A stretch of DNA of 64,000 nt from Alphaproteobacteria bacterium (GTDB lineage: Bacteria > Pseudomonadota > Alphaproteobacteria > RF32 > CAG-239). The stretch is from contig SUUJ01000008.1 of NCBI GenBank assembly GCA_015062585.1, forward strand, positions 2,837-66,836. Direction: 5' to 3'. Both the position numbers and the translations under genes were made by a program. Positions 42,610-56,933 of this stretch are shown in pieces (the stretch's first letter is position 1; the number at the start of each line of letters is the position of its first letter). The notes beneath the pieces were generated by a model that saw nothing but the letters and a program-made list of their open reading frames with translations, did not search any database and was not told where the DNA came from.

Positions 42610-42745
42610 TGCGTTAACCTATTATATATTCGCTATAGATTTGAATTTGTCTTTCTTTAAGCTTTTTGTTTTTAAAGGGGGATGTTTCGGGTTTATTTAG
42701 AGGGTTTGATTGGTTGGCTTCCTGTAAGATAGTCTTATGGGAAAA
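42610..42745 (+). promoter_or_regulatory. conserved structured 5' leader (copy 1)
   Basis: Aligns with 44380-44512; hairpins show compensatory changes. Confidence 0.55.
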
Positions 42746-42763
42746 TATCAAAATTCATGTTTT

Positions 42764-44281
42764 ATGTTCCAAATTTTCAAAAACTTCGTGAAATCCACAA
42801 AAAGTTTGTGGTTCCACTTTACCCACAAGGGTAGAAAAAATCGCACAGACTACATCCCAGTAGATGTGCAAATCGAAATTGCTTATTTCGAAAAAAAGCT
42901 GAGACACAACCCCAAAAGAGCTTTCATCATGACTGATCATGCCTGGTCCAAGGCATTTCGTTTGTGGATGTTCCAAAACGGTATGTTTGAGCTATTTGGC
43001 CAAATTTCCTCTGATGAAGAGATAAAAGAATTGTTGGCGCAAAAGGCTGACTTATCCATCGCGAAAAAGGTGTTGTCGGACAACACACCCAGCCGTAAGC
43101 TATTAGAGGAGTTAGACTATTCTGACCCCTATATCAAAGAGCTTGTGAAAGCCGTTCCATTGGCATTCCAAAATGCGCCTACGTATAAGGTTATCGAGCA
43201 AAAAGATGTCTTAGAGGTCTTAGTTGACACTTTCTTAGATAAAAAATGGTTCGACTATTTGAATTCTTACATGCTAAAAATCGTCAACAGCAAAAAACAG
43301 GATTATGAAGACATAATTCTTAAAATCGCTGACAGGTCGATTAACGGAAAAGAGATTGCTAAGGTTATTCCAACCCTTAGGATTGATTATCCAAATGTAT
43401 ATGTTTGGGTTCGCGAGAACATCGAACGTCTTACATCACCCACGGATGTTATGCTAGCAGCCTTCGTCCCTAAAGATCTTCCTTCTGATATCAATATTGA
43501 TATTGACAATATCAGCGACATCAAAACGAAAGGAACTATGGACAAGCATAGTGATGCGTTGGCTTGGCTTAGGTTACTCATCGAAAACATAAAATCCAAA
43601 GAGGTGTTTAATACTTTGGTGTCATCGCTCGATGACATCAAAAGGATGAATGAAACCTTATTTGAGCAACTATGCGAGAAGCTTGCTGGGTATCACTATG
43701 CAGGTAAAGATTTTCTTGCAAAGGCAACCCCAAAGGCTAAGATGATAGTCTTACGTAAAAAAGCAGACACTACAGATTTGTGGTCATATTATCCGTTTAC
43801 GAGCTGGCCTGAAGATATACAAAAGGAGGCTTTGGATATTTTGGTAAAACGCAGTGGTATATCCTATTATAATGCTGCTCAATTGCCGGAAAATCTGCGA
43901 TACTATGTTTTCGAGCGAGCGGAAGTTTACGCTCAAATTTCCACTATTTTCAATGGCAATCATGATGACCTCAATAGCCTGTATTCAAAGAAGCTTTCAA
44001 AAGAGGTTGAAGAAGTCATAGTTAAGGCTACTGCTGCTAACTTTCGTGGAGATATGGGAATGAGTTTCGACATGAAGCTGGGCTACGCTCAAAAGGCTAG
44101 GAAATATATAGAGGAACATCATATTGATCCTTCAGTTTTTCGAAAGTATCTGCTCAAGCTCAGTGAAGATCAGGTTCGAGATCTTATTGTGAAGAGGAAG
44201 AGCTTTTCTCGAGCTGAATACAGCGAGCTTATGGCATCGAGATTTAAATTTTTAGCACATTTGGTTAAGGTTGAAGACTAA
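42764..44281 (+). CDS. large hypothetical helical protein (ORFan, paralogue of next)
   Basis: Long ORF; ATG 42737 lies inside the leader hairpin, so 42764 is preferred. Confidence 0.75.
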   Translation: MFQIFKNFVKSTKSLWFHFTHKGRKNRTDYIPVDVQIEIAYFEKKLRHNPKRAFIMTDHAWSKAFRLWMFQNGMFELFGQISSDEEIKELLAQKADLSIAKKVLSDNTPSRKLLEELDYSDPYIKELVKAVPLAFQNAPTYKVIEQKDVLEVLVDTFLDKKWFDYLNSYMLKIVNSKKQDYEDIILKIADRSINGKEIAKVIPTLRIDYPNVYVWVRENIERLTSPTDVMLAAFVPKDLPSDINIDIDNISDIKTKGTMDKHSDALAWLRLLIENIKSKEVFNTLVSSLDDIKRMNETLFEQLCEKLAGYHYAGKDFLAKATPKAKMIVLRKKADTTDLWSYYPFTSWPEDIQKEALDILVKRSGISYYNAAQLPENLRYYVFERAEVYAQISTIFNGNHDDLNSLYSKKLSKEVEEVIVKATAANFRGDMGMSFDMKLGYAQKARKYIEEHHIDPSVFRKYLLKLSEDQVRDLIVKRKSFSRAEYSELMASRFKFLAHLVKVED

Positions 44282-44291
44282 AACTTAAAGC

Positions 44292-44342
44292 AAGACAACA
44301 AAAAAAGGGTGTGAGTTCATCTCGCACCCTTTTTTTTGTCTA
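44292..44342. terminator. 51-bp terminator identical to 45977-46027
   Basis: aagacaacaaaaaaagggtgtgag-ttcat-ctcgcacccttttttttgtcta. Confidence 0.85.
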
Positions 44343-44379: not shown

Positions 44380-44512
44380 ACGTTAATCAAATTATGTATT
44401 TTCTATGGATTTGTAGTTGTCTTTCTTTAAGCTTTTGCGTTTAAGGCGGGATGTCCTATTTTCTATAGCGGGTCGTTTGGTTAGCTTCCTATGGGGTATT
44501 CCTGTGGGAAAA
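44380..44512 (+). promoter_or_regulatory. conserved structured 5' leader (copy 2)
   Basis: Aligns with 42610-42745; TTGACA promoter at ~44347. Confidence 0.55.
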
Positions 44513-44533
44513 CTTAAAAAAATATCAAACAAA

Positions 44534-45967
44534 ATGAAAAAAGAAACAAAATTGGCATTCATTGGCCTATTGGCCAAATGGATGTGGGCGTGCAAATGTC
44601 AAAAGTTCGCCAAGAGATTAACCCAAGAGTTTGCGAAAGGTTTAATCTACCAAACGAAGGAAGTGAATGAACGTATTTTGGCTCCCGGCCGTATAACCTG
44701 GCCAAAAGAGGTACGTCTTGCGGTCATAAACGCAGGCATCTCCGTATTGCGTCCTGAGACATCGGAGGAAGTACTCGCAACTATTCAAAAAGGAGTAGTT
44801 AAGGCCGAAGACTTGTATCCTATTCTTAAACAGTGGACGTTCAGTGAAGAGGAAGTGAAACGAATTGAGGTTAATGACAATAATTATAACTATATTTTGT
44901 CATTAGTTAAAGTTTCACCATACACTTTCCAGAACGCATGGGAAAAGATAATCTTTTCTCCAAATTGGAAAGTACTAGTCGATAAAGGCATTGAAAGAAG
45001 CGATGAATATATCTTGACCAGGTGTATTTCACTTGCAAAAGACAAGCCCCATTCGAAGGATTGTAAAGAGGTAGTTAACGCCGCGGTCGGTGCCCTTTTG
45101 GAAATGGGGCGTGAGACGGCTAGGTATCTATTAACCGAAAACATCCCTCAAGAGCTTAGCGACAAAGCGCTAAGATTGTTTAACTCTTTGCCGGATAAGA
45201 CTTCGTGGTTACAACTGATGGTTAATAGAACCATACCAGGTTCTGATCAAACACATGAAAGTTGGGTTAAACTTGCATGCGATTACGTAGATTACGACAA
45301 GCATATCTATGTAGCTCTCGTTAATTTATTAAAAAGAATGAGAGAGACTGAAGTCGGAGATGCTGATAATTTGTGTGATTGCCTAGTAAACAGCGAATGG
45401 TTAGATGAAAAGGTGGTCCTCTACTTGAAAGAGGAGAAATACCTTGTTAAAGCCTTTTGCTTAAAACCTGATCTTGCAAAGAATTTGTTCCCCTTTAATG
45501 GATGGGGTACAGAGTCGACTAAACAGGCTCTGGAGTGTATGGCTCTAAGCGGAGATCTGGAAATGGAACATTTGCTGTATTTCAGCGATGACATCAAGGA
45601 CTTTGCCATAAAATGCATGGAAGTCGAAGCATTCAAAGCTGTTTGCTTAAAAGCGGTTTGTCTAAATGAGAACCTTGAGGATCTTAAGAGCCTGGTTAAG
45701 CATTCTCTTGATCCTAATGTGGAGTATGTACTCATGAGTGCAATGTCCTCAGATTGCACTAAGGTTAGAAAAATTGTTAACCAGTACGTTAAAGAGCATT
45801 TGACGTCGATTGAGACATGGGCATTCATTGAGTACCTGGAACATGCGACTATTAAGGAAATCGAGGCCGCAATTGAAGGAGCTTCAACCGTTTCTAAAGA
45901 GGTGTATGACACATTGGCTATGACAAAATGTCGTTATCTCTTAAAAGATCTGAAGATTGCTGAATAA
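44534..45967 (+). CDS. large hypothetical helical protein (ORFan, paralogue of previous)
   Basis: Start MKKETK at 44534. Shares LVK..P..FQNA, (Y/F)PF..W and L...VE motifs and the C-terminal pattern with the previous ORF. Confidence 0.75.
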   Translation: MKKETKLAFIGLLAKWMWACKCQKFAKRLTQEFAKGLIYQTKEVNERILAPGRITWPKEVRLAVINAGISVLRPETSEEVLATIQKGVVKAEDLYPILKQWTFSEEEVKRIEVNDNNYNYILSLVKVSPYTFQNAWEKIIFSPNWKVLVDKGIERSDEYILTRCISLAKDKPHSKDCKEVVNAAVGALLEMGRETARYLLTENIPQELSDKALRLFNSLPDKTSWLQLMVNRTIPGSDQTHESWVKLACDYVDYDKHIYVALVNLLKRMRETEVGDADNLCDCLVNSEWLDEKVVLYLKEEKYLVKAFCLKPDLAKNLFPFNGWGTESTKQALECMALSGDLEMEHLLYFSDDIKDFAIKCMEVEAFKAVCLKAVCLNENLEDLKSLVKHSLDPNVEYVLMSAMSSDCTKVRKIVNQYVKEHLTSIETWAFIEYLEHATIKEIEAAIEGASTVSKEVYDTLAMTKCRYLLKDLKIAE

Positions 45968-45976
45968 AGCTGATGT

Positions 45977-46027
45977 AAGACAACAAAAAAAGGGTGTGAG
46001 TTCATCTCGCACCCTTTTTTTTGTCTA
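45977..46027. terminator. 51-bp terminator identical to 44292-44342
   Basis: Exact repeat by eye. Confidence 0.85.
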
Positions 46028-46142
46028 AAACACTTGCATGATACATAAAAATATGATAAACTCCATTACATAAAATATATAATTGTGTTCAAATTATGGT
46101 GTTATAGCTATTTTTTAGGACACAATAAAAACATAAAAAAAA

Positions 46143-46451
46143 ATGAAACAGATTAATTTTAGTCCATTGCACGTTTGGTGCAATTGGTATGAGGCCAATA
46201 AACTGGCTGAAGAAAAAGGTATGAAGCTTCCATCCATAGAGGATGTCGAGATCATTAAAGAAGTTGCAGCTTCAATGAAGGCTAATGGTGAACCACTTAT
46301 GCCCCGGGGAGAACCGGATGGTATGTGGTGCAGAGAAGCCAAAGATGAGGAGTTTGCTACAACAATTGATCCTCGTACCGGAGAAATTCGGTATATTAGA
46401 AAGATAGGCGTTCGGCTATGTATGCTAATAGAAGAAGTCTCTACCGAGTAG
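46143..46451 (+). CDS. hypothetical protein
   Basis: NWYEA...G.KLPSIED motif reminiscent of C-type-lectin-like (FGE/DUF1566) folds. Confidence 0.6.
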   Translation: MKQINFSPLHVWCNWYEANKLAEEKGMKLPSIEDVEIIKEVAASMKANGEPLMPRGEPDGMWCREAKDEEFATTIDPRTGEIRYIRKIGVRLCMLIEEVSTE

Positions 46452-46546
46452 AGACTTTTTTTTTGATCTGACAAAAGATAATAAAATTTTAATTTGTTGA
46501 TAGTTAGTATATATCTTCAATAACCGATACAAAAAAAGAGGTAAAA

Positions 46547-47377
46547 ATGATAGATATATTACTAAAATTTACGCAAAAAGCCGGACGCAAGCTAAAATCA
46601 ATGCGTAAAAATGTCAAAACTATGGGCAACAAAGATTCTTCGGTCAGCTCACTGGTTACACAGGCTGATGTTTATATATCTGATATTTTTGCCAAGACTG
46701 TAAAAAAACATTTCTCTCATCTTAGCTACATGATTATCGACGAAGAAAAAATCACAAATTATGGCAAAGATATTTTCAACAAAATAAAGTCTACCGAGTA
46801 TCAATTTGTCATAGACCCTATCGACGGCACTATTCAATATGCCAATAACCATCCGCTTTACGGTATAACCATCGGTGTATACAAAAATGCCAAACCGCTA
46901 ATGGGACTGATTTATTTGCCCGAAATCGAAGAAATGATATATTTTGACGGCAAAAAGGCTTATTATGTGCAAAATTGCTTCAAAAAAAATGAGATAAAAA
47001 CCGAACTTTTACCGCAAGCAAAAGCGGATACTTCAATTATTTTCGGACATCCGTGGCTTTGGGATCTAACTTCTGAATTTTCGACTGACAAGGCATTGTT
47101 TTTAGACTATTTTGCTTCGGTTTCCCAATGTTTTTATACTCTGCTGGGCAAAGCAAAAGGCTATTGTATGTGGCTGTATTTATGGGATATTGCCGGCACT
47201 TTACCGATTGCCGAATATTTGGGAATTAAATTGTATAAATATGGAAGCAACAAAGCTTGTAATGGCATTTCGCCCGACTTTTTCGATAGCGACATGGGAT
47301 TAAAAGACCTATGCGTAATGTGTCATTCCAAAGATTACAAAGAAATATGCTCTATGGTCTGTCCCAAAAAGCAATAA
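46547..47377 (+). CDS. inositol monophosphatase family protein
   Basis: LVTQAD, IIDEE, VIDPIDGT and LWDIAG motifs. Confidence 0.9.
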   Translation: MIDILLKFTQKAGRKLKSMRKNVKTMGNKDSSVSSLVTQADVYISDIFAKTVKKHFSHLSYMIIDEEKITNYGKDIFNKIKSTEYQFVIDPIDGTIQYANNHPLYGITIGVYKNAKPLMGLIYLPEIEEMIYFDGKKAYYVQNCFKKNEIKTELLPQAKADTSIIFGHPWLWDLTSEFSTDKALFLDYFASVSQCFYTLLGKAKGYCMWLYLWDIAGTLPIAEYLGIKLYKYGSNKACNGISPDFFDSDMGLKDLCVMCHSKDYKEICSMVCPKKQ

Positions 47378-47446
47378 TCATCATTTTGGTTCATTAAAAT
47401 AAGAAAAGCACCCGTTAAGGTGCTTTAATTAAAAAAAAACGATTTA

Positions 47447-47722
47447 CTACTGCTTCTCGTTTATGAGCTCTTCGAGGCGTGTAGTAAGATTGTTGAGGTC
47501 CTCTTCTTGCTCCTTTGTAGCTTTTTCCCAAAGAGGAGTTGTAGACAAAGCCTTCATCTTACCCAAAAGATTTTCAGCCTTCTCTTTGTTGAAGCGGTTT
47601 GCCAGTTGTACGCAGTTTCCTGCAAAAGTCCAAAGACGGAAACTAATTTCACCGGTTTGTTCAAAATAACGGTTTTGCAACTCTACGGCTGCGACAAGAG
47701 TCTTTAATTCAAGCTGTGTCAT
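47447..47722 (-). CDS. hypothetical protein (ORFan)
   Basis: Promoter TTGACT-N17-TATAAT at 47815-47843; start MTQLEL at 47722; terminator at ~47405-47426. Confidence 0.6.
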   Translation of the reverse strand: MTQLELKTLVAAVELQNRYFEQTGEISFRLWTFAGNCVQLANRFNKEKAENLLGKMKALSTTPLWEKATKEQEEDLNNLTTRLEELINEKQ

Positions 47723-47864
47723 AATATTTTTATTAAAAGGTGAATCTATAACTACGCACTGGCCAAAGGCTCTAAAAGACATAATTATAGACATACTGTG
47801 ATTTATCGAATATGATTATACCACATTTCAGAAGTTGAGTCAATTAAGAAAATCAGCGCTTTAT

Positions 47865-48311
47865 CTAAGCATTTTTTCGCAAAATATAATGCGGCATATA
47901 GATCCCCGAGGCATCATATTTTTCTTCACTTATTTTTTCAAAACCAAACTTTGTATATATATGCAATGCAACATCATTGTCGGTTCTGACACCTATACTC
48001 ATAGGTCCGCTATATGTATCTATAATATATTTAATCAATTTTTGCCCGATACCCTGATTATGATATTGCGGCAAAACATAAAGCTGTTTAATTATTTTTT
48101 CTTTTGTGCAATAGCTGATATATCCGACACTTTTATCGCCTTGCTTATAGATATATGTATCAAGGCTCGGATAATTATATGTTATTACCCGTTCATACAG
48201 TTTTTTCCAATCATCATCAGGTAAATCAATGCTTGAGCGCAAAGATTTATCAAATATTACTAACAAATCCGGCCAATCAGAAACAACTGATTTAATTATT
48301 TTTGTTTTCAT
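47865..48311 (-). CDS. GNAT family acetyltransferase
   Basis: QLYVLPQYHNQGIG and N..AL..Y.KFGF; GGAG SD before MKTKII. Confidence 0.85.
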   Translation of the reverse strand: MKTKIIKSVVSDWPDLLVIFDKSLRSSIDLPDDDWKKLYERVITYNYPSLDTYIYKQGDKSVGYISYCTKEKIIKQLYVLPQYHNQGIGQKLIKYIIDTYSGPMSIGVRTDNDVALHIYTKFGFEKISEEKYDASGIYMPHYILRKNA

Positions 48312-48371
48312 TTTTTTTGCTCCGTATTTCAGCAAAAGGGTCGCAATATTCGTTATTTATATAATCTTCTA

Positions 48372-49034
48372 TCATATCGTCAGTTTAACTTCTTTCATGG
48401 TTGAACAAACAGCGATAACGCCTGTATCATAACATTTCTTACGATATTCAGGTGTATCATTACCTTCTGCGCCCACAAATGCAATACTTTTCATTCCGGC
48501 ATCATTGGCGGCCTTAAAATCATTCAAACTGTCACCGATTACAATGCAATCCTGCGGCCTATAACCTTTTGTTTTTGCTGCTAACAAAAATAAATCCGGC
48601 GCCGGTTTTCCATGATTTACCATATCAACAGTAAAATAATCTTCAGGCGACATATATTTTTCAATCCACTTAAACTGTGTCATTTTCCAAGAATGTTGCT
48701 CTTTTGTAGCTCCGGTAGCGATACAATGCTCAAAACGATTATCGCTCATAACATCTTCCACCCCCTCTATCGGTTGCATAAAATGCATTCCTTTATATAC
48801 TTCACCTTCATCAATTTTTTGCATAAAATCTTCATCCAAAATCAAATCAGGAAAATATCTTTCCAAATTTGCTTTTCTGCTTTTGTCAGCAATACCAACC
48901 AACAGATTAAGTTTTTCGTCTTCGGAAAGGGTGATGTTTTTTTCTTTTTTTAATGTTTCGAGCCAAACAGAAACCCACAGCTTTTCGCTGTCAGCAATAA
49001 CTCCGTCAAAATCCCAAATGATTAGCTTGTTCAT
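48372..49034 (-). CDS. HAD family phosphatase (CbbY/beta-PGM-like)
   Basis: WDFDGVIADSE, GKPAPDLF and VIGDS..D motifs; GGAG SD before MNKLII. Confidence 0.9.
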   Translation of the reverse strand: MNKLIIWDFDGVIADSEKLWVSVWLETLKKEKNITLSEDEKLNLLVGIADKSRKANLERYFPDLILDEDFMQKIDEGEVYKGMHFMQPIEGVEDVMSDNRFEHCIATGATKEQHSWKMTQFKWIEKYMSPEDYFTVDMVNHGKPAPDLFLLAAKTKGYRPQDCIVIGDSLNDFKAANDAGMKSIAFVGAEGNDTPEYRKKCYDTGVIAVCSTMKEVKLTI

Positions 49035-49099
49035 ATTTTTCTCCATAATGAATTGCCGAAAGTTTATCATAAGCAATAAAAAAATCAATAAGATGAAGT

Positions 49100-49245
49100 A
49101 AAAGTCTGATAATTGATAAAAAATTACTATTTTCGGAAACATGACAATCGGACTTTGCGTGAAGTAGTAATCGCAACAAAAAAAGCACCTTTCGAGGTGC
49201 TTTTTATAAAATGGTGCACGCCACGATGCAATTATCGGAGTAATC
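49100..49245. repeat. cassette-junction module A (inverted repeat, hairpin, terminator, tRNA-3'-like site)
   Basis: TCTGAT(49105)-N36-ATCGGA, hairpin ttgcg..cgcaa, terminator aagcacct-ttcg-aggtgctt, and TGGTGC(49212)-N16-ATCGGA. Confidence 0.7.
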
Positions 49246-49305
49246 TTAACAATAAAAAACGCCCCGATTTTTGATTGAGGCGTTTGCTATAAAGTATTAA
49301 TATAA

Positions 49306-51306
49306 TCAGTCGTTTGTCTTTTGAAGAACCGCATTAATAGCAGCACCTAATACCTTTTTATCCTCAGCAGAGCGCTTAGGCTTCGTCACTCCTTTTTCCG
49401 GCGAAACATTATCCTTTGCAATTTCGCGCAAAACTTCTGTTTTTTCTGCTTGTCCGTTGTTGGTATCGCCGGCATGCAATTTGCCTTTAACCTTAGCTAA
49501 ATACTTTGCTGTGGCCACTTTTGTTTCGTGATATGTTACAACTTGCGCCGCCGAAATTTTACGATCCGCCGGAACTTGTTGCCATAATGTATAATCCGGA
49601 TCACCATATGAAGTTAAACTCTTAATACCTTGTTTTTCAGGAATCGTATCATCATACACTTTACCTGCCAAACAGATATTTTCTTCTGTGAATGCCTCCT
49701 TAGAATATATCGGACATCCGTTTGATAGTTTTGACTTAAAATCGCTTATCAGTACTGATGTTTCTTCATTATTTCGATGCGATATTTCTGCGTTCTCACA
49801 TGCTTTTAACAAAATTTTTCTTTGTTTTTCCGGTTCTCCGCCGGTATAAATTGCATAGTCTTGCTCTTTCAATTTCTTTAATAATGAAATATTCAAGTTT
49901 CCATTGTCTAGCAAAAGAGTCCCGTCGATATCAACCATAGTTGTATCAACATACAGCATATTCGGATTTTGAATGTATTCTTTCCTTGTTTCATTAAGGT
50001 CTTTTTCTTTTTCACCATTCATATAACCAAGATATTTTCGACATAGAGAAACATGCGGATGTTTTTCCAATACCTTTCTAAAATCTTTTGCGGCCTCAGG
50101 GTACCACTGTACTGATTGCCAATACCCTGCAAAACAGCGGCTATCATTATTAAATTCTTGTCCTTCTTCACATAAGCGTGCTATTTTATCTAAAACGATA
50201 TTGCCTTTTACACGGTTGTCTTTATCTTCCATAAAACCATGCTCATAACAATGACATAACGTATGGACACAATGATCAATATCACCATGTTTACCATAGT
50301 CTAAAAATTCTATTGCCTTATATACATCTTCAACCGACATATCTTCCGGACGATGTTCAAATAGTTTTTGATAATATTCACTATATGCCCTTTTTGCATC
50401 ATAAACAGGAACTTGCGTGTTTCCATATTTAGTTTCAATCGTTATATTCCCATTTGCATCGGGATGTTCAACTTTTCTTTCAACTTCATCATGAAACAAA
50501 CCTCTTTCAACCATTGGTAATATGTCAGATTCTTGTATTTTTGCGCCCAGTTCGACCAATTTATCAACAGCGGCTTCAGTTGAAACTTTTTCAACAAGAT
50601 ATTGGGTATTATCACTCTGTAAACAATAAGCTTTTTCAAACCAATAGTCGTTGTGCAATAAATGAGGTATTTCATTATAATCTAGAGAAAATTTACCGGA
50701 TTTGATAGAGATGTTGACCTCATCAGACGCAGGTTTTATATCAAGGATAGGCATAATCATATCAATTTGCTTGCTGTCATTGCTATGCAAAAACAAGGCG
50801 TAAGCCGCTATTCTTGATTTTTCATCCTCCATATCAATGTAAGGCAGCAACATTTCAGTTGATGCCGCATCTTTAGCCCTAACAAAAGATTTTAAAATAG
50901 CATCTTTCACGGTTGGGTATTCTTTATCCAATTTCGGTAATATTTCTGCAATTTCCGAACTGTTTTTGGCATTAATTAAATCATTGATATTTTGCTTATT
51001 TTCTAAAATTTTTTTAATTGCACGACCGGAACAAGTATCAGGATTAATATTTTCAGTCAAAAATGCTTTTGCCTTATTACTGTCAGTATTACTAAATACA
51101 TTATCTAGAGCTTTTTCAATAGCAAAGATAAATTGATTTTCGTCTTTTTCAAAAACATCAGAAAATTGATTTATTTTTTCCAAGTATTCAGATAAACCAT
51201 TAGGAAATTCATCTTGGCTACGTTTTAATAGTCGTTTTAGTATAAAAACATTAGTTATATGATTAAGTAATTGTGTCTTTCTGTCTTGTTCCATATCATC
51301 AGCCAT
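49306..51306 (-). CDS. large hypothetical protein with a HAD-like DxDGT motif near the C-terminus
   Basis: 666-aa ORF with SD GAGGAG; VDIDGTLL, YTGG and YDD motifs; charged C-terminal tail. Confidence 0.7.
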   Translation of the reverse strand: MADDMEQDRKTQLLNHITNVFILKRLLKRSQDEFPNGLSEYLEKINQFSDVFEKDENQFIFAIEKALDNVFSNTDSNKAKAFLTENINPDTCSGRAIKKILENKQNINDLINAKNSSEIAEILPKLDKEYPTVKDAILKSFVRAKDAASTEMLLPYIDMEDEKSRIAAYALFLHSNDSKQIDMIMPILDIKPASDEVNISIKSGKFSLDYNEIPHLLHNDYWFEKAYCLQSDNTQYLVEKVSTEAAVDKLVELGAKIQESDILPMVERGLFHDEVERKVEHPDANGNITIETKYGNTQVPVYDAKRAYSEYYQKLFEHRPEDMSVEDVYKAIEFLDYGKHGDIDHCVHTLCHCYEHGFMEDKDNRVKGNIVLDKIARLCEEGQEFNNDSRCFAGYWQSVQWYPEAAKDFRKVLEKHPHVSLCRKYLGYMNGEKEKDLNETRKEYIQNPNMLYVDTTMVDIDGTLLLDNGNLNISLLKKLKEQDYAIYTGGEPEKQRKILLKACENAEISHRNNEETSVLISDFKSKLSNGCPIYSKEAFTEENICLAGKVYDDTIPEKQGIKSLTSYGDPDYTLWQQVPADRKISAAQVVTYHETKVATAKYLAKVKGKLHAGDTNNGQAEKTEVLREIAKDNVSPEKGVTKPKRSAEDKKVLGAAINAVLQKTND

Positions 51307-51436
51307 TTTTGTCTCCTCATTTGATATTTTGTTTTACACTAAAACAAAATTTTTAAAATATAATTTAATATTACTATAAAAATAGATTTCTATCAAGTTT
51401 TTTTTGGATTTGTAATACCTGTGTGGCACTGAGTAA

Positions 51437-51728
51437 AAAGTCCGATAGTTTATGAAAAATTGTCGTTCCAAAAATTTATAAAATCGGACCTTATGAAAGG
51501 AGTGGTTTTCATAACAAAAAAACCTCCCCATGGGGCGAGGCAATAAAAAGCCAAAAGTAATTGGCTTTTTATAACGCAGGTTACACTATTGTTAGCTTGT
51601 GAGCGAATGAAATGACGCAAAACAAGCGTTACAATAGAGGTGACCGAAGCGAGTTAGAGAGCGATAGCGAACTTACGAGCAAGAGCTTTTTTAATGGTGC
51701 GCGATAGTTTGCAAGTATCGGAATAACC
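51437..51728. repeat. cassette-junction module B
   Basis: TCCGAT(51441)-N36-ATCGGA, hairpin ttatgaaa..tttcataa, terminator interrupted by a 151-bp element, and TGGTGC(51695)-N16-ATCGGA. Confidence 0.8.
51535..51685. repeat. 151-bp palindromic MITE/REP-like element (copy 1)
   Basis: Identical by eye to 52642-52792; splits the cctccc/gggagg terminator. Confidence 0.7.
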
Positions 51729-51766
51729 GTACGCAAGAATATACAGCATCGGAAAATAAGTTGACG

Positions 51767-52525
51767 TTATTTCTTAATCAAATCAAAAATAATTGAGTAA
51801 CTTTTCTCAATATCAACATCATTCGGATATGCCAAAAGCTTGCTTTGATATAAAATATTGCTCTGAGAATAGTTATACAAATTTTCTAAATTCACGCTTA
51901 AATCTTCTTCTATTTTAAGCATTTGAGCTATAAGTTGGTTAATAAAGCTTTGCCCTAATATGCGATTAATCTTAAAATCTATATCACTCAAATAATTTAG
52001 CATTTTTTCATACTCTATCACGGATAAATGGAACGGATCTAAGCTTTTTCCATTTTCATCAATCATCTCATTTTGCGAGTTCGGAAAAGATAAAATCAGT
52101 CTTCCGCCGTGGGGTAAGATATTATAAAATTTCTCGATAACCGCAAAAGGATTGGGAGTATGTTCTATTGTTTCAAAACTGATAATAGTTGATATACCAT
52201 AATCAGATAAATCTATGTTATTATTTAAATCTGTTTTTATGAATTGTAAATTTTTGCGTTTATAACTTTTGTTTGCTTCTTCTAAGTATTTATCGTTAAT
52301 ATCCGCACCGACAACAAATTTTGCTTTTTGCGCAAGTAAATCGCTTCCATAACCTGTTGCACAAGCAATGTCTGCGACAATATCTTTCTTTGAGATATTA
52401 TCAAGCGCATAAAGATACCGTCCGCAATGTTCAAGTTTCATAAAGAAATTTTGCGGTTTTTTATCAAAAGGATTGCAGAATTCATTATTTGTATAATTTT
52501 CTATCATATTGGCAACATAATCCAA
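51767..52525 (-). CDS. class I SAM-dependent methyltransferase
   Basis: EH..RY.YA, DIACATGYG, ISFETIEH and L..GG.LILS.PN motifs; start may be ATG 52507. Confidence 0.9.
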   Translation of the reverse strand: MDYVANMIENYTNNEFCNPFDKKPQNFFMKLEHCGRYLYALDNISKKDIVADIACATGYGSDLLAQKAKFVVGADINDKYLEEANKSYKRKNLQFIKTDLNNNIDLSDYGISTIISFETIEHTPNPFAVIEKFYNILPHGGRLILSFPNSQNEMIDENGKSLDPFHLSVIEYEKMLNYLSDIDFKINRILGQSFINQLIAQMLKIEEDLSVNLENLYNYSQSNILYQSKLLAYPNDVDIEKSYSIIFDLIKK

Positions 52526-52543
52526 AAATTTTAAAAAATATTA

Positions 52544-52819
52544 AAAGTCCGATAATTGATGAAAAATGGCTGTTTTGAAATTCATAAAATCGGACCTTAT
52601 GAAAGGAGTGGTTCTCATAACAAAAAAACCTCCCAAAAGGGGCGAGGCAATAAAAAGCCAAAAGTAATTGGCTTTTTATAACGCAGGTTACACTATTGTT
52701 AGCTTGTGAGCGAATGAAATGACGCAAAACAAGCGTTACAATAGAGGTGACCGAAGCGAGTTAGAGAGCGATAGCGAACTTACGAGCAAGAGCTTTTTAA
52801 TGGTGCCGCTAGTAAGAAT
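52544..52819. repeat. cassette-junction module C (joins the tRNA-linked repeats)
   Basis: TCCGAT(52548)-N35-ATCGGA, the same hairpin and 151-bp element as B, then the exact 19-bp tRNA 3' end. Confidence 0.8.
52642..52792. repeat. 151-bp palindromic MITE/REP-like element (copy 2)
   Basis: Identical by eye to 51535-51685. Confidence 0.7.
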
Positions 52820-53144
52820 GGGTACTCCCGCTCATTCATTCGCGGGTCCTCCTCGCGTCGTAAGGCTCGCGCTTCATTTTATTTGCGCTTGCCAACTATC
52901 CGCTCCGGACAAGTCCGCTTCTAACTATCCTCAAACCATTAAAAAAAAACCTCCCCAAAGGGAGGCTTTTTTAATGGTGCCGCTAGTAAGAATGGGTACT
53001 CCCGCTCATTTATTCGCGGGTCCTCCTCGCGTCGTAAGGCTCGCGCTTCATTTTATTCGCGCTTGCCAACTATCCGCTCCGGACAAGTCCGCTTCTAACT
53101 ATTCTCAAACCATTAAAAAACCTCCCAAAAGGGAGGCTTTTTAA
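52801..53144 (-). repeat. two tandem tRNA-linked repeats (174 and 170 bp)
   Basis: Units start at 52801 and 52975. Each contains tggtgccgctagtaagaat (last 19 nt of the tRNA) plus a terminator hairpin. Confidence 0.9.
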
Positions 53145-53219
53145 TGGTGCCGCTAGTAAGAATCGGACTTACGACCCCACCCTTACCAAGGGTGTGCTCT
53201 ACCACTGAGCTATAGCGGC
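53145..53219 (-). tRNA. tRNA-Thr(GGT)
   Basis: GCCGCTATAGCTCAGTGGTAGAGCACACCCTTGGTAAGGGTGGGGTCGTAAGTCCGATTCTTACTAGCGGCACCA; 75-nt cloverleaf with encoded CCA. Confidence 0.95.
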
Positions 53220-53241
53220 AAAATAATATTTTTTCTTTTTT

Positions 53242-53415
53242 GTAGAGCACACACCTTAAAGGGTGTGCCTTAGGCATCTAAGCTCGCTTCGTTTGATTGC
53301 CATCTGCACTCGCTCACTAAGATGTTCCAAAGAGCTTGCAGACAAAATTGATATGCCATATCAATTTTACTTAGCGCTACCACTGAGCTATAGCGGCAAA
53401 ATAATATTTTTTCTT
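53242..53415 (-). pseudogene. interrupted 5' partial copy of tRNA-Thr
   Basis: 39-bp direct repeat 53377-53415 = 53199-53237, then a ~110-nt insertion, then GCACACCCTT-TAAGGTG with the anticodon GG missing. Confidence 0.65.
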
Positions 53416-53444
53416 GGCAAAATAAATATCATCTTGCGAAACAC

Positions 53445-53473
53445 AACATACAAAACCATTTTATAAAAATCAA
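53445..53473 (-). promoter_or_regulatory. putative sigma70 promoter for the tRNA locus
   Basis: TTGATT-N17-TATGTT. Confidence 0.5.
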
Positions 53474-53557
53474 GGGATTTTTTAAGGATTTTAATTTTTT
53501 TTTTGTAAATATAGTATATAACCATAACTATACTAATAATACCAAAAGGAATACATA

Positions 53558-53704
53558 ATGCCAAAAGCTTCTGAAAATAAGCAAAAACCTCGTTATGAAG
53601 AACGATTCGAGCGCGAGGCTAAAGCTTTGCAAAAAAATTTGGAAAAACGCAAAATCCAACAAAAAAAGCGCGAGGCATTAAAACAGGAGAAAAACAATGG
53701 ATAA
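53558..53704 (+). CDS. small basic protein (48 aa) upstream of murA, not in ORF track
   Basis: [48 protein letters not shown] with AAGGA SD. Resembles the AL..NL..RK peptide preceding murA in alphaproteobacteria. Confidence 0.7.
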
Positions 53705-54995
53705 GATTAAAATTCGCGGTGGTAAAGCCTTGGAAGGTAAAATATTCATCAGCGGTGCCAAAAATGCCGCTTTGCCTTTAATTTGTGCCTCGTTGCTTAC
53801 TGATGAAACCGTTACCTTGACCAATGTCCCGATGCTTTCGGATATTAAGGCAATGAACGATTTATTAACCCAACACGGCACCAAAATAAATGAATTTGAT
53901 GATTTTGTTGATGGCCACTCCACCAAAACTTATTCTTATCGCACTAAAGAAATTGAAAGCCTTATCGCACCATATGATTATGTCAGAAAAATGCGTGCTT
54001 CTTACTATGTGCTAGGACCTTTGTTGGCTCGCTACGGTAAATGTGAGCTTTCACTTCCCGGCGGTTGTGCAATCGGGGCTCGCCCAATGGATATACACTT
54101 ATCTTCTTTAGAAAAAATGGGTGCTAAAATCGAAATCAAAAACGGCTATATTCATGCTAATGTTGACGGACGCCTAAAAGGAGCTCATATCATATTCCCC
54201 GGCGTTTCGGTCGGTGCAACATGTAATGTTTTAATGGCAGCCGTTTTGGCCGAAGGTCGCACAGTTCTTGAAAACTCGGCTAAAGAACCTGAAATTGGCG
54301 ATTTGGCAAGATTATTAAATGCAATGGGTGCCAAAATTTCGGGTATCGGAACTGCTGTTTTGACCATTGACGGCGTAGAAAAGCTTCACGGTGCCGTTCA
54401 TAAAGTTATTGCCGATAGAATTGAAGCCGGTTCCTATGCTGTCGCCGCCGCTATCACTCGCGGTCGTATTGAATTGATAAATGCTCAAATCGAAACCTTG
54501 CGCCGTCCGATTCAAGTTTTGCGTGATATGGGAGTAAATGTCGAAGAAACTGAAACCGGTATAATTGTTGATGCCAAAGGTTGCGAACTGGTCGGTAAAG
54601 ATATTATGACCGAACCTTTCCCCGGATTTCCTACCGATCTTCAAGCTCAATTTTTGGCTTTGATGATGACCGCTAAAGGTGCATCCATGATTACCGAAAC
54701 CATTTTTGAAAATCGCTTTATGCACGTTCCCGAACTTCTGCGTATGGGTGCCAACATTAATGTTCATGGTCATGCTTCTGCTATTGTTCGTTGCGTGGAC
54801 AAACTTTCCGGAGCACCGGTTATGGCGACCGACCTCAGAGCTTCGTTTGCTTTGATTTTGGCTGGACTTATTGCCGAAGGCGAAACAACGGTAAATCGCG
54901 TATATCACTTAGATCGTGGCTATGAAAAGTTGGAAGAAAAGCTTCGTTCGGTCGGTGCCGATATCGTTCGCGTAAAAGAAGATGATGAAGAATAG
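53697..54995 (+). CDS. murA: UDP-N-acetylglucosamine 1-carboxyvinyltransferase
   Basis: [24 protein letters not shown] (catalytic Cys), FPTDLQAQ and HLDRGYE motifs. Confidence 0.98.
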
Positions 54996-55004
54996 GGGCG
55001 TATT

Positions 55005-55388
55005 ATGAAAAAAATACTTATTGCGGCGCTTTTGCTTTTGGGGGCTTGTTCGCAGGATAATACTATGACCTTAAAAACAGGTTCGTACAAATTAAAAAAC
55101 TCAATGCATAATGTTCCCACTATTTTGACACTTTCCAAAGATGGAAAACTGAATGCTAAGGTTGTTAATGTGATTATGGGCGAATATACAACCTCACAAG
55201 ACAATATCACCATAACACCGGGCGGTACAACCATGATGATGGGACCTCAAGAGGAAATGGAAGCCGAACAAAACTTTATTCAGGCATTACCATTGATTCG
55301 AAAATACAAAATGCAGGAAAGTAATTTGGTGTTGATTTTGGAAAATGGCGGCGAGCTGATATTTGAACCATATACCGAGCCAAAATAA
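55005..55388 (+). CDS. META domain lipoprotein
   Basis: Lipobox LGAC; VN...G.Y, TMMMGP...MEAEQ.F...L pattern. Confidence 0.8.
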   Translation: MKKILIAALLLLGACSQDNTMTLKTGSYKLKNSMHNVPTILTLSKDGKLNAKVVNVIMGEYTTSQDNITITPGGTTMMMGPQEEMEAEQNFIQALPLIRKYKMQESNLVLILENGGELIFEPYTEPK

Positions 55389-55427
55389 TAAAAAAGCGAA
55401 GTTCTTAAAAACTTCGCTTTTTATTAT

Positions 55428-56933
55428 CTATTTTCTCACTTCTTTACCATAGAGCAACCAGTCATAGATTTTTGATTTTTTCCTTACTTCTATGTCCATT
55501 TCTTCAACGGTAAACATTCCTTCGGTCAAAGTCGGTATTTCCGAGAATAACGAAGTTCCCAGACCTAATCTGTGTCCTTCAATTTTGGCTCCTAAGCTTT
55601 CGACAATCGTCGGATAAATGTCAAAAGGCGTAAATACTCGATTTTTAGTAAAGTTCGCCGCAACAGGTGTATTTATAAAAATATTTATCGGACGACGCTC
55701 CATATCTTTGGTAAAACGCTGATTCATTGTTAAGTGGTCGCCCAAAACTACTACAACCGTATCTTTATAAAAATCTTGAGCCTTTATCCAAGTAATAAAT
55801 TCATTTATCTGTTTGTCCGAGCACGAAACTACATTTTCAATATTGTTGTCAGGGCCAAACTTTCTTTCGCAAACATCGTCGGCAAAACGATATGTTCCGT
55901 AATGTGTATCAAGTGTCATCAAAGTAAATACAAACGGCTTATTTTCTTTTTTCAGTTCATTTAAGGCCTCTTTAGCATAAGCAAAAACTTGAGTATCCGG
56001 CAATTTTGTTGTTTTTTCCAAAGACAATTTTATACCGTCGCGTTTTGCATAAAAGTTTGTATCCAAGAGTTTTTGCTTGCCATGAGTTTCAACAAACTTG
56101 TCCATACCGGCAAATTCACCGTTTGAACCGATAAGCGAAACCAAGTTATAGCCTTGTTTTTCCATTATATCATATAAGCACCAAGCCTCCGGAAAAAAGC
56201 CTTCTTTGGGATGAAACCAGTTTGGATCGTTAATCGGAAGCTGTATCGGAGCACCGCAAGTTTGTGCAAATAATCCGGCTTGTGTCCATTGTGTGCCGTC
56301 AATTTCATATGCACCACCCATATATTCATTGTCGCTGAACGATATATTTTCATTGGCTAATTTTTGCATATTCGGAATCAAATCAGCGCCGAAATAGTTG
56401 TGCCTTGGGGTTTTGGCATAAGTAGCCTCAAACGATTCGGCAAACAGTATAATTAAATTAGGTTTCTTCGTCGGGAAATTGATTTTAACATGCTGTGGAA
56501 TTACATAGTGTTTTTCATAAAAATTGGATGTTTCACTTTTATATTTGTGATATGTAATCATATTCCAAACATTCATTTTAAAGAATACAAAAACTATGCA
56601 AAAAGCCAACCATACATAGCTCAAAAGGTTGCGCTTTTGATAAACAAACTCGCGAAATTTATCAATAAGCTTAATATGAAATTTATATTTATAACAAAAC
56701 AGCAATGTCAAAGCCAAAACAATAATCGCACCGGTCATCACGGTATTTTTAGCATAGCTTAACATCATTCTTGTTTCAGAGGCAAACGGCATATTTAAGT
56801 GGAACATAATCTGTTCATAAGTAACTTCGCCAAATTTTCGAACAATCCAGTTTGCTGAAGAAAACATCATAAAACCAACAAAAACAATAAATAATGCTAA
56901 CATAAATCTCTCTCCAAAAGTATAATTTATCAA
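55428..56933 (-). CDS. LTA synthase / phosphoglycerol transferase (OpgB-like) sulfatase family protein
   Basis: N-terminal TMs, then NLIILFAESFE, WT.AG, TLDTH, LGDH and FDIYPT. Confidence 0.85.
   Translation of the reverse strand: MINYTFGERFMLALFIVFVGFMMFSSANWIVRKFGEVTYEQIMFHLNMPFASETRMMLSYAKNTVMTGAIIVLALTLLFCYKYKFHIKLIDKFREFVYQKRNLLSYVWLAFCIVFVFFKMNVWNMITYHKYKSETSNFYEKHYVIPQHVKINFPTKKPNLIILFAESFEATYAKTPRHNYFGADLIPNMQKLANENISFSDNEYMGGAYEIDGTQWTQAGLFAQTCGAPIQLPINDPNWFHPKEGFFPEAWCLYDIMEKQGYNLVSLIGSNGEFAGMDKFVETHGKQKLLDTNFYAKRDGIKLSLEKTTKLPDTQVFAYAKEALNELKKENKPFVFTLMTLDTHYGTYRFADDVCERKFGPDNNIENVVSCSDKQINEFITWIKAQDFYKDTVVVVLGDHLTMNQRFTKDMERRPINIFINTPVAANFTKNRVFTPFDIYPTIVESLGAKIEGHRLGLGTSLFSEIPTLTEGMFTVEEMDIEVRKKSKIYDWLLYGKEVRK

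Follow-up and report, generated by a model that had tools for sequence, protein, structure and literature searches.

Stacked Cassettes Beside tRNA-Thr(GGU) in a Gut Alphaproteobacterium Suggest Serine-Integrase Elements Whose Recombinase Tail Is Rewritten by Integration

The tRNA-Thr(GGU) Locus

The DNA considered here, hereafter the window, is a stretch of 64,000 nucleotides from an uncultured alphaproteobacterium (assembly GCA_015062585.1, contig SUUJ01000008.1) whose genome of 1.5 Mb is designated G000; other G and L numbers denote related genomes and loci. It contains a single tRNA gene, tRNA-Thr(GGU) (ARAGORN; Rfam), and past the 3' end of this gene lie two cassettes, each closed by a copy of a two-block sequence that also forms the end of the tRNA itself. 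Read on the tRNA strand, the blocks are TCCGAT and GCACCA, separated by 11 nt in the tRNA (N11) and by 16 nt at the cassette ends (N16). Comparison with related genomes supports the interpretation that a large serine recombinase (LSR) uses the 3' end of tRNA-Thr(GGU) as the attB-type left arm of its site, and that the locus belongs to a system in which serine-integrase elements target tRNAs, cassettes are stacked, and integration rewrites the tail of the recombinase.

Outward from the tRNA, and on its own strand, the order is terminator, two A1 repeat modules arranged as 174-bp tandem units, cassette 1, cassette 2, a further terminator, a third inverted repeat, and genes for a HAD hydrolase and a GNAT acetyltransferase (Table 1). 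Both cassettes have the internal order B repeat element, inverted repeat, cargo gene, and N16 site, the last designated J2 in cassette 1 and J1 in cassette 2. A cassette homologous to cassette 1 is present in G056 (L188). Beyond J1, the arrangement of terminator and inverted repeat matches the start of LSR-less cassettes in relatives, where HAD and GNAT genes are recurrent cargo; the HAD/GNAT pair may be native flank or else an older cassette whose distal site has been lost.

Table 1. Features around tRNA-Thr(GGU) in the window, ordered outward from the tRNA
Feature	Position	Strand	Basis and remarks
tRNA-Thr(GGU)	53145..53219	-	ARAGORN; Rfam tRNA 70 bits; LSR reading frames of relatives end in its antisense
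Candidate B arm, TGGTGC-N11-ATCGGA	53145..53167		Antisense of T loop UCCGAU, acceptor 3' strand, discriminator A and CCA
Terminator hairpin past tRNA	53110..53144	-	Copied after each A1 module
A1 copy 1	52975..53081	-	Core 52994-53081 plus exact 19-nt copy of tRNA nt 58-76 (52975-52993); nhmmer with purpose-built A1 profile, E about 1e-20; blastn-short
A1 copy 2	52801..52907	-	Core 52820-52907 plus 19-nt tRNA 3' copy (52801-52819); 98% identical to copy 1
B repeat element, cassette 1	52656..52793	+	Inserted in terminator, tRNA-proximal end; nhmmer E=7e-35
Inverted repeat, 47 bp, TCCGAT..ATCGGA	52548..52594		Cassette 1
S-adenosylmethionine-dependent methyltransferase, 252 aa	51767..52525	-	Cassette 1 cargo; Pfam Methyltransf_31/11/25
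N16 site J2, putative P arm/attR scar	51695..51796 (site 51695-51722)	+	Opens 33-codon apparent LSR tail remnant WCAIVCKYRNN...
B repeat element, cassette 2 proximal end	51549..51686	+	nhmmer E=6.5e-35; 97% identical to other window copy
Inverted repeat, 48 bp, TCCGAT-N36-ATCGGA	51441..51488		Cassette 2
666-aa reading frame	49306..51306	-	Cassette 2 cargo; no Pfam match, no PADLOC match
N16 site J1	49212..49274 (site 49212-49239)	+	Decayed 20-codon apparent tail remnant WCTPRCNYRSN...
Terminator (49182-49204) and inverted repeat, 48 bp (49105-49152, TCTGAT variant)	49105..49204		Beyond last site J1
HAD hydrolase (48372-49142) and GNAT acetyltransferase (47865-48335)	47865..49142	-	Pfam; distal to J1

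A Conserved Family of Sites

Three matches to TGGTGC-N8..20-ATCGGA occur in the window against 0.02 expected, and none of 100 shuffled sequences reached three; a first-pass annotation, made from the window alone, had placed all three sites and their spacings correctly. Across the whole of G000, six TCCGAT..GCACCA pairs were found, of which only those in the window are followed by a T-rich tract and terminator, and the N16 form exists in two copies only, both in the window.

The neighborhood of tRNA-Thr(GGU) and murA is kept in 54 of 56 genomes of the genus. At 14 syntenic loci that were retrieved, cassettes of differing cargo follow the tRNA and are closed by a common site, nine with N16 spacing and one with N17. 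A search of the 56 genomes for TCCGAT-N15..17-GCACCAT returned 63 matches (reversed-pattern control, one match); 54 of these read as one family, TCCGATAAYTGCAYAGTATCKCGCACCAT (50 N16, 4 N17), and nine are unrelated. The exact form AGTCCGAT-N16-GCACCAT was present at 112 sites in 69 of 151 genomes of the order, with none for the control, and all 69 genomes belong to one family, in which they represent 15 of 20 genera. The N16 spacing on which the first-pass annotation depended is thus kept in more than 100 further copies.

The tRNA end of the system is equally constant. N11 geometry was found in every tRNA-Thr(GGU) recovered from relatives (12 syntenic loci and 10 from other genera), and the acceptor-stem bases between the two blocks vary across genera, with both blocks and the N11 spacing fixed. 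In two genomes, N16 cassettes are present at a second target, tRNA-Leu(UAA), which has AGTTCGATT (TTCGAT-N11-GCACCA) at N11. Related repeats in public records come from bins of uncultured gut Alphaproteobacteria of people, rabbits, deer, sheep, and buffalo. The T loop of tRNA-Thr(GGU) (53159-53165) reads UCCGAUU, with C in place of the near-universal U55 (Rfam alignment). This C is kept in every relative examined, and the motif is the one common to the arm of the LSR element.

A Large Serine Recombinase Adjoining the tRNA

When open reading frames (ORFs) of cassettes and flanks (29 + 96) were scanned with Pfam, one recombinase was found, at locus L196 of G062. This ORF of 513 aa matches Resolvase (54 bits), Recombinase (48 bits), and Zn_ribbon_recom (37 bits), all above cut-off, contains the motif ..ARVSSEEQ, and is antisense to the tRNA, with its stop codon inside the tRNA 3' end. 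Orthologs with 83-100% identity occupy the same place in G020, G057, and G007. Among eight loci of the genus, four have a full-length LSR ending ..KWCR-stop in the tRNA, two run to a contig end, and two have an A1 module instead; in other genera, nine of ten loci have a full-length LSR that ends in the tRNA antisense, and the tenth is truncated, with A1 between it and the tRNA. In total, a full-length LSR gene abuts the 3' end of tRNA-Thr(GGU) in 13 related genomes, bearing out the association with an LSR that had been proposed from the window. The last residues before the stop codon (WCR, WCRR, WCH, or WCRWQESDLRPRHYQ) are set by the local acceptor-stem sequence. In seven contiguous LSR loci, 8.2-11.4 kb separate the tRNA end from the first N16 site of the same orientation; genes for a type II restriction enzyme and a C5 methyltransferase are part of the G062 element. 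At least eight further genomes have C-terminal LSR fragments beside the tRNA or beside N16 sites.

More distant LSR paralogs in the genus (20 proteins, 32-40% identity) follow a similar pattern, 11 ending inside an antisense tRNA 3' end (tRNA-His twice, Asp, Gln-CUG, Glu-UUC four times, Leu-CAG, Thr-CGU, and Gln-UUG; L216, L220-L229) and the remaining nine having no tRNA nearby. Running into tRNA 3' ends is therefore a habit of this LSR clade. The LSR is only 24-35% identical to the nearest integrases in phage records, and a phmmer search of PDB sequences gave no recombinase match, only spurious RecA repeats. The AlphaFold2 (AF2) model of the extended LSR was poor, with a mean predicted local distance difference test score (pLDDT) of 50.8 and a tail below 50; in this same model, two long helices at 364-466 (pLDDT 73-84), which may represent a coiled coil, follow the ribbon strands.

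Two other serine recombinases of G000 were considered as the tRNA-Thr LSR and rejected for want of a match at E<=1e-10: an LSR on the plasmid-like contig C16 (RepB/ParB, AbiEii) and a 211-aa resolvase on C5. No B element was detected on C16, where the tRNA match of 17 nt is at chance level, and the B copy nearest to the C5 resolvase is about 4 kb off.

A Proposed Attachment Site in the Recombinase Gene

A frame of 20-40 codons, W-C-x-(I/L)-L-C-x-Y-R-(T/S)-x-x-Y-(D/E)-(D/E)-(F/Y)-K-x-L..., begins at every N16 site on the strand opposite to the tRNA; it has no start codon, and in two cases a stop codon stands just before it. The frame in which the LSR enters the tRNA is this same frame. At L192 (G020:C16), 228 LSR codons and 30 tail codons form one frame across the N16 site, and LSR and tail are likewise continuous in L188, L240, and L245. 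Since the frame runs through the N16 site into the tail, attP would lie within the last codons of the LSR gene. In the window, a stop codon directly precedes the tail remnant at J2, which matches the L192 tail at a tblastn E value of 0.097. The spacers of the two N16 sites, regarded in the first-pass annotation as otherwise divergent, proved to be homologous and to code for protein on the + strand.

A protein search with the read-through ORF returned 44 public LSRs in two length classes. Those of 513-526 aa are without the tail, the forms of 514-526 aa that were inspected ending WCR or WCRWQESDL..; 11 of the 44 are 540-565 aa long and cover the tail, which was present in all six inspected. These data support a scheme in which integration swaps a tail of about 30 residues (WCxILCxYRTxxYDDFK…) for W-C-R-stop, so that the tail would be read only when the element ends are joined. 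A literature search returned no account, in the portions of the sources that were accessible, of a serine integrase gene that crosses attP and has its tail rewritten by integration.

Conservation downstream of the N16 site has the 3-nt period of coding sequence. Third codon positions hold 1.1-2.0 bits inside the 30-nt site as against 0.15-0.7 bits further downstream, a count in which the hexamers themselves were fixed by the search pattern. A search that relied only on the coding sequence downstream, without use of the motif, recovered 20 sites; all 20 had TATCGGAC, the next base being T in 17 and A in 3 (TATCGGACT, with ACA in 3). Together, the conserved third positions and the invariable motif point to a constraint on DNA as well as on protein. 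The tails are diverse and differ by substitutions of coding type, which suggests that each scar comes from a separate active element.

Site Geometry and Inverted Repeats

The 9-mer AGTCCGAT(A/T) is shared by the two kinds of site and is followed, before GCACCA, by 15 nt in the P arm of the element and by 10 nt in the B arm of the tRNA. In the LI integrase, the 9-bp motif of the zinc-ribbon domain (ZD) occupies positions 16-24 of the attP half-site and positions 11-19 of the attB half-site (PMC3783163). By this comparison, AGTCCGAT would be the zinc-ribbon-domain motif, and the 5-bp shift would tell attP from attB. The serine-recombinase interpretation in the first-pass annotation is supported, with a ZD-type shift that fits LI geometry on the left arm only, at 112 sites and in all tRNA copies seen; the other arm has neither a matching motif nor dyad symmetry. 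LSR crossovers fall at a 2-bp overlap identical in attP and attB. GCACCATTT is common to attL, attR, and attP-like junctions, and the crossover is tentatively placed inside GCACCA, where it would lie 1-2 bp further in than exact LI numbering predicts. Folding of the junctions as tRNA-like structures was also considered and rejected, the folds being no better than those of shuffled sequences (z=0.2 and -1.7).

Downstream of 51 sites, 16 inverted repeats of the form TCCGAT-N36-ATCGGA were found, 15 of them exactly 48 bp long. In LSR-bearing elements, the repeat lies at +83 from the tRNA end, inside the codons P-I-I-S-E-K-R-D-I-L-K-L-I-L-S-D; in LSR-less cassettes, it lies after a terminator at +59 to +61 (13 of 16), and some copies still translate as PIISQK.... 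The window copy in cassette 2 has a weak tblastn match to the LSR segment 'KSPIISEKRDILKLILSD' (E=5.7). Such repeats had been thought attP-like because of their size of about 48 bp, a role that was abandoned since they lie inside LSR codons, or derive from them, and are intact inside integrated elements. They are read here as remnants of the 3' coding end of the LSR, the 47-bp copy of the window being a decayed one.

Proposed Mechanism

The site family, the adjacency of the LSR, the read-through frame, and the distances are observed directly, and the mechanism built upon them is, taken as a whole, likely: the 3' end of tRNA-Thr(GGU) would be the attB of an LSR that circulates in a family of uncultured gut Alphaproteobacteria, and N16 sites would be scars of its P arm. 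Elements of 8-11 kb, with cargo such as restriction-modification (R-M) genes, would integrate by crossover inside the shared GCACCA(TTT). Integration would leave the tRNA B arm, TCCGAT-N11-GCACCA, on one side and, as attR, the P arm, TCCGAT-N16-GCACCA, at the distal end. Where the ends are joined as attP, the LSR would read through the P arm and gain its tail of about 30 residues; in the integrated form, it would stop at W-C-R in the tRNA antisense. The two N16 sites of the window would then be P-arm scars bounding two cassettes that have lost the LSR, in an array that is now immobile.

LSR coding sequence comes after 11 of 64 distinct junctions, and a terminator-type start after nearly all others inspected. 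Cassette cargo includes Fic/Doc (recurrent), HAD, HD, NUDIX, GNAT, methyltransferases, R-M systems, and AbiU2, and further AAA_14/DUF4143, zeta-toxin-like kinase, Bro-N, HNH, and PLD genes. LSR-less cassettes would have arisen either by decay or by mobilization in trans.

A further suggestion, made tentatively and with the odds somewhat against it, is that the tail acts as a built-in sensor of integration state that biases the activity, stability, or direction of the enzyme, that the site doubles as P-arm DNA and as codons, and that sister LSRs behave alike at seven or more other tRNA species. The free or joined form would bear the tail WCxILCxYRTxxYDDFKxLxxKIE.., and the integrated form would end in W-C-R taken from the antisense of the tRNA acceptor. 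If so, serine recombinases of these gut bacteria would generally use tRNA 3' ends as landing pads, with defense and accessory cassettes in stacks resembling those of the staphylococcal cassette chromosome (SCC).

Several observations weigh against the proposed mechanism. Exact LI numbering puts the center of the site at the first bases of GCACCA, where the central dinucleotide is C/G in P and G/G in B; it was on account of these unlike bases that the center was placed 1-2 bp further in. Dyad symmetry was of no use for locating the crossover, reaching at best 12-14 of 28 positions in five attP-like junctions and giving no consistent center, and no ATCGGA-like motif occurs in the P' arm at the mirrored distance. 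ATCGGA also spells the codons (T)AT-CGG-A(CT), for Y-R-T, so part of its conservation is at the protein level. Both N16 sites of the window are without AG before TCCGAT, and the tail at J1 is decayed. The attL formed by integration is not a canonical attB, which leaves the build-up of arrays of up to four to five cassettes unexplained. G000 has no ortholog of the tRNA-Thr LSR (no matches at E<=1e-10 and only tblastn scraps at E>5), so the cassettes of the window are orphans, with nothing in the genome able to act on their sites today. Finally, all genomes compared are metagenome-assembled bins, in which repeat arrays often break contigs.

Alternative Explanations

The alternative that survives best, although on present evidence it is doubtful, is that the LSR-less cassettes are not decayed elements and instead form a non-autonomous family with conserved ends (a terminator and the 48-bp inverted repeat on one side, the N16 site on the other), moved and shuffled in trans by resident LSRs in the manner of integrons or SCC. 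Such a family is suggested by the shared proximal layout of cassettes with unrelated cargo, including the 48-bp repeat at its fixed distance, and would agree with the integron-like nature of that cargo (Fic/Doc, GNAT, NUDIX, HAD, R-M, Abi), with the occurrence of N16 cassettes at a second tRNA, and with A1 modules whose exact position between the P and P' arms of an attP-like junction looks like the product of integration. However, the first approximately 25 nt after GCACCA differ between LSR-bearing elements and LSR-less cassettes, so that one enzyme would need to act on both kinds; neither a circular form nor an empty site was seen; and G000 keeps its cassettes without any LSR.

It is also conceivable, but unlikely, that an LSR does use the locus and that the 5-bp offset is a by-product, with N16 fixed by the coding of the tail (W-C-x-x-x-C-x-Y-R-T), the likeness to the T loop a coincidence, and the zinc ribbon reading other bases. 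The frame is indeed plainly coding, as its 3-nt period and the full-length proteins with tails attest, the four N17 variants inspected break it (W-C-V-stop, W-C-A-stop), and the P' arm lacks a mirrored motif. Coding alone would nevertheless not account for invariant synonymous positions in TAT-CGG-ACT, where Arg is always CGG in a genome of 36% GC and neighboring codons wobble. Nor would it account for an identity to the tRNA that extends over 8-9 nt (AGTCCGAT), for the N11 spacing of the related block in the second target, tRNA-Leu(UAA), or for the constancy of both blocks and their distance amid varying acceptor-stem bases.

The weakest alternative, a classical tyrosine-integrase island with crossover in the T loop or 3' end of the tRNA and with N16 sites as diverged copies of the tRNA 3' end, is highly improbable: Phage_integrase matched none of the 29 and none of the 96 cassette and flank ORFs (125 in all, so that the tyrosine-integrase association that would have told against the first-pass annotation did not appear), the N16 site has only 8 + 7 nt (AGTCCGAT/TCCGAT, GCACCAT) and no continuous 3' block in common with the tRNA, and in 13 genomes the site is adjoined by an LSR gene, which continues in frame across it. 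Elements of that class do occur in the genus. Extra tyrosine integrases of 360-470 aa are common in the genus; tRNA-Lys(CUU) carries 5-6-kb elements with integrase ORFs of 402/446 aa and a 45-nt identity block (L164, L169); the A1 modules of the window hold exact 19-nt copies of tRNA nt 58-76, as such elements do; and one A1 adjoins a tyrosine integrase at tRNA-Val (L173). Identity to the tRNA as far as its 3' end is limited to these separate A1 modules (19 nt).

G000 has two PF00589 hits, of 299 and 342 aa and both on other contigs, which are read as XerC/D-like from their length and their universal presence in the genus. With only two N16 copies in G000, and only XerC/D-like tyrosine recombinases, the sites were initially read as old tyrosine-integrase scars whose N16 spacing was under-sampled, a reading overturned by the sites in relatives. 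An integron (IntI, attI, and cassettes each followed by attC, an imperfect palindrome with R''/R' core sites) was likewise rejected: G000 has no extra tyrosine recombinase, the junctions fold no better than shuffled sequences, and the site is LSR coding sequence.

Comparison With Known Systems

The proposed LSR elements resemble A118/LI-type phage integrases in the domains of the enzyme (Resolvase N-terminal domain, recombinase domain, and zinc ribbon, whose long coiled coil may correspond here to the two helices of the poor AF2 model), in an outer motif 5 bp nearer the center in the chromosomal site, and in a short identity at the presumed crossover (Rutherford et al. 2013, PMC3783163). They differ in that the target is a tRNA 3' end, no recognizable mirrored arm is present, and attP would lie inside the recombinase frame.

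For the formation of stacks, the nearest working analogy may be SCC elements at rlmH, which are moved by Ccr LSRs. In both, tandem cassettes with short repeated sites accumulate at the 3' end of one housekeeping gene, many cassettes are without a recombinase, and the cargo comprises defense and accessory genes. The present system differs from SCC in host phylum, in using a tRNA and not rlmH, in enzyme lineage, and in the overlap of the recombinase ORF with the site. Tycheposons and tRNA islands of Prochlorococcus likewise arise by repeated integration beside tRNAs, with newer elements pushing older ones outward and degraded remnants and partial tRNAs persisting (bioRxiv 10.1101/2020.12.28.424599). 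A minority of these elements (27 of 937) carry an LSR; most have tyrosine recombinases and partial-tRNA repeats of about 40 nt (bioRxiv 10.1101/2020.12.28.424599). Unlike these, the scar described here has two short tRNA blocks only and would be LSR-specific.

Genes that span their own attachment site have precedents among tyrosine recombinases. Archaeal SSV integrases have attP inside the integrase gene, which is split in two halves on integration; in the LSR elements the gene would likewise span its own site, but only the last 30 or so codons would be exchanged, leaving the enzyme whole. In the integration-dependent immunity of mycobacteriophage BPs and its relatives, attP reportedly lies inside the repressor gene, integration at a tRNA site replacing the C-terminal end of the repressor, and the integrase is of the tyrosine type. 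Here the gene spanning attP would be that of the serine recombinase itself, and a regulatory role of the swap is a possibility.

The locus offers a candidate pair of sites for an uncharacterized LSR lineage, with attB running from the T loop to the CCA of tRNA-Thr(GGU) and attP at the N16 junction, and more than 100 natural site variants are available for reading its specificity. Serine integrases with defined tRNA sites may help to explain how attP and attB are discriminated and could serve as integration tools. The proposed system would also account for the hypervariable defense and accessory genes found beside tRNAs in a widespread family of uncultured gut Alphaproteobacteria.

Repeat Elements and Other Features

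Neither repeat element of the window matches a known RNA family, the tRNA alone passing an Rfam scan of 46000-56000 (E<=1). The B element is about 155 nt long and strongly folding (z=-5.9 for a sister copy of the cassette 1 element), with a hairpin, a long imperfect hairpin, and then GTGACCGAAGCGAGTTAG...GAGCTTACGAGCAAGA. In G000, 13 nhmmer hits were obtained, 10 of them within 352 bp of a tRNA gene (C13:31468, C3:43007, C5:105715, C8:754, and others), and the element is often flanked by a 16-38-nt copy of a tRNA 3' end. Of 24 sampled genomes of the genus, 16 contain it, and public bins of gut Alphaproteobacteria have it in at least 121 stretches.

The A1 core is GC-rich and about 90-114 nt long, CGGAGYGGATAGTTGG...GAGGAGGACCCGC..GCGGGAGTRCCC, with nine hits in G000 (C5:62369, C12:75342, C10:2124, and others). 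In every case a T-stem/GTTCG-like piece borders it on one side and an exact copy of tRNA nt 58-76 on the other, which gives it the appearance of an insertion into the T loop of a partial tRNA copy. In G062, A1 interrupts a displaced 3' half of tRNA-Val beside a tyrosine integrase, and in G058 it lies between the P and P' arms of an attP-like junction. A1 and B were considered as far-end arms of other tRNA-targeting LSRs and rejected, as neither was found downstream of 10 LSR-tRNA loci (5-20 kb each), one of which is the Thr(GGU) element; no tRNA copy of 12 nt or more was found downstream of these loci either.

Partial copies of tRNA genes extend to 5' ends. At 53238-53415, 178 bp upstream of tRNA-Thr(GGU), there is a 42-nt copy (98%) of its 5' end (nt 1-21) and upstream flank, and the segment between the gene and this copy matches several places in other genomes of the genus. 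Exact copies of the 5' half are also present upstream of tRNA-Pro(UGG) (nt 1-38) and tRNA-Ser(UGA) (nt 1-36), and a diverged copy upstream of tRNA-Pro(GGG); at both tRNA-Pro loci, a B element follows nt 37 of the anticodon loop. A second stack was found in G000 at tRNA-Pro(CGG) (C5:29800-35950, L031), in which 3' parts of B are each followed by a 22-24-nt tRNA 3' copy. This stack bounds genes for a Dam methylase, an N4/N6 methylase, a PD-(D/E)XK nuclease, and an AIPR abortive-infection protein, followed by a GNAT gene.

Elsewhere in the window, the start of the GNAT ORF (48324-48382) and that of the cassette methyltransferase (52456-52514) have 59 nt in common at 80% identity, encoding a similar N-terminus of about 19 residues, MIE.Y..NE.C.PF, a leader that unrelated cassette enzymes share. 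A pair of adjacent ORFs, 514 and 516 aa long (42737-44342 and 44417-46027) and without Pfam matches, are each followed by the same 62-nt terminator region (92%) and are probably a tandem gene duplication. On another contig of G000 (C19:10316-10642), a permuted two-piece tmRNA gene with the tag ANDNNVAPVAMAA fits an alphaproteobacterial host.

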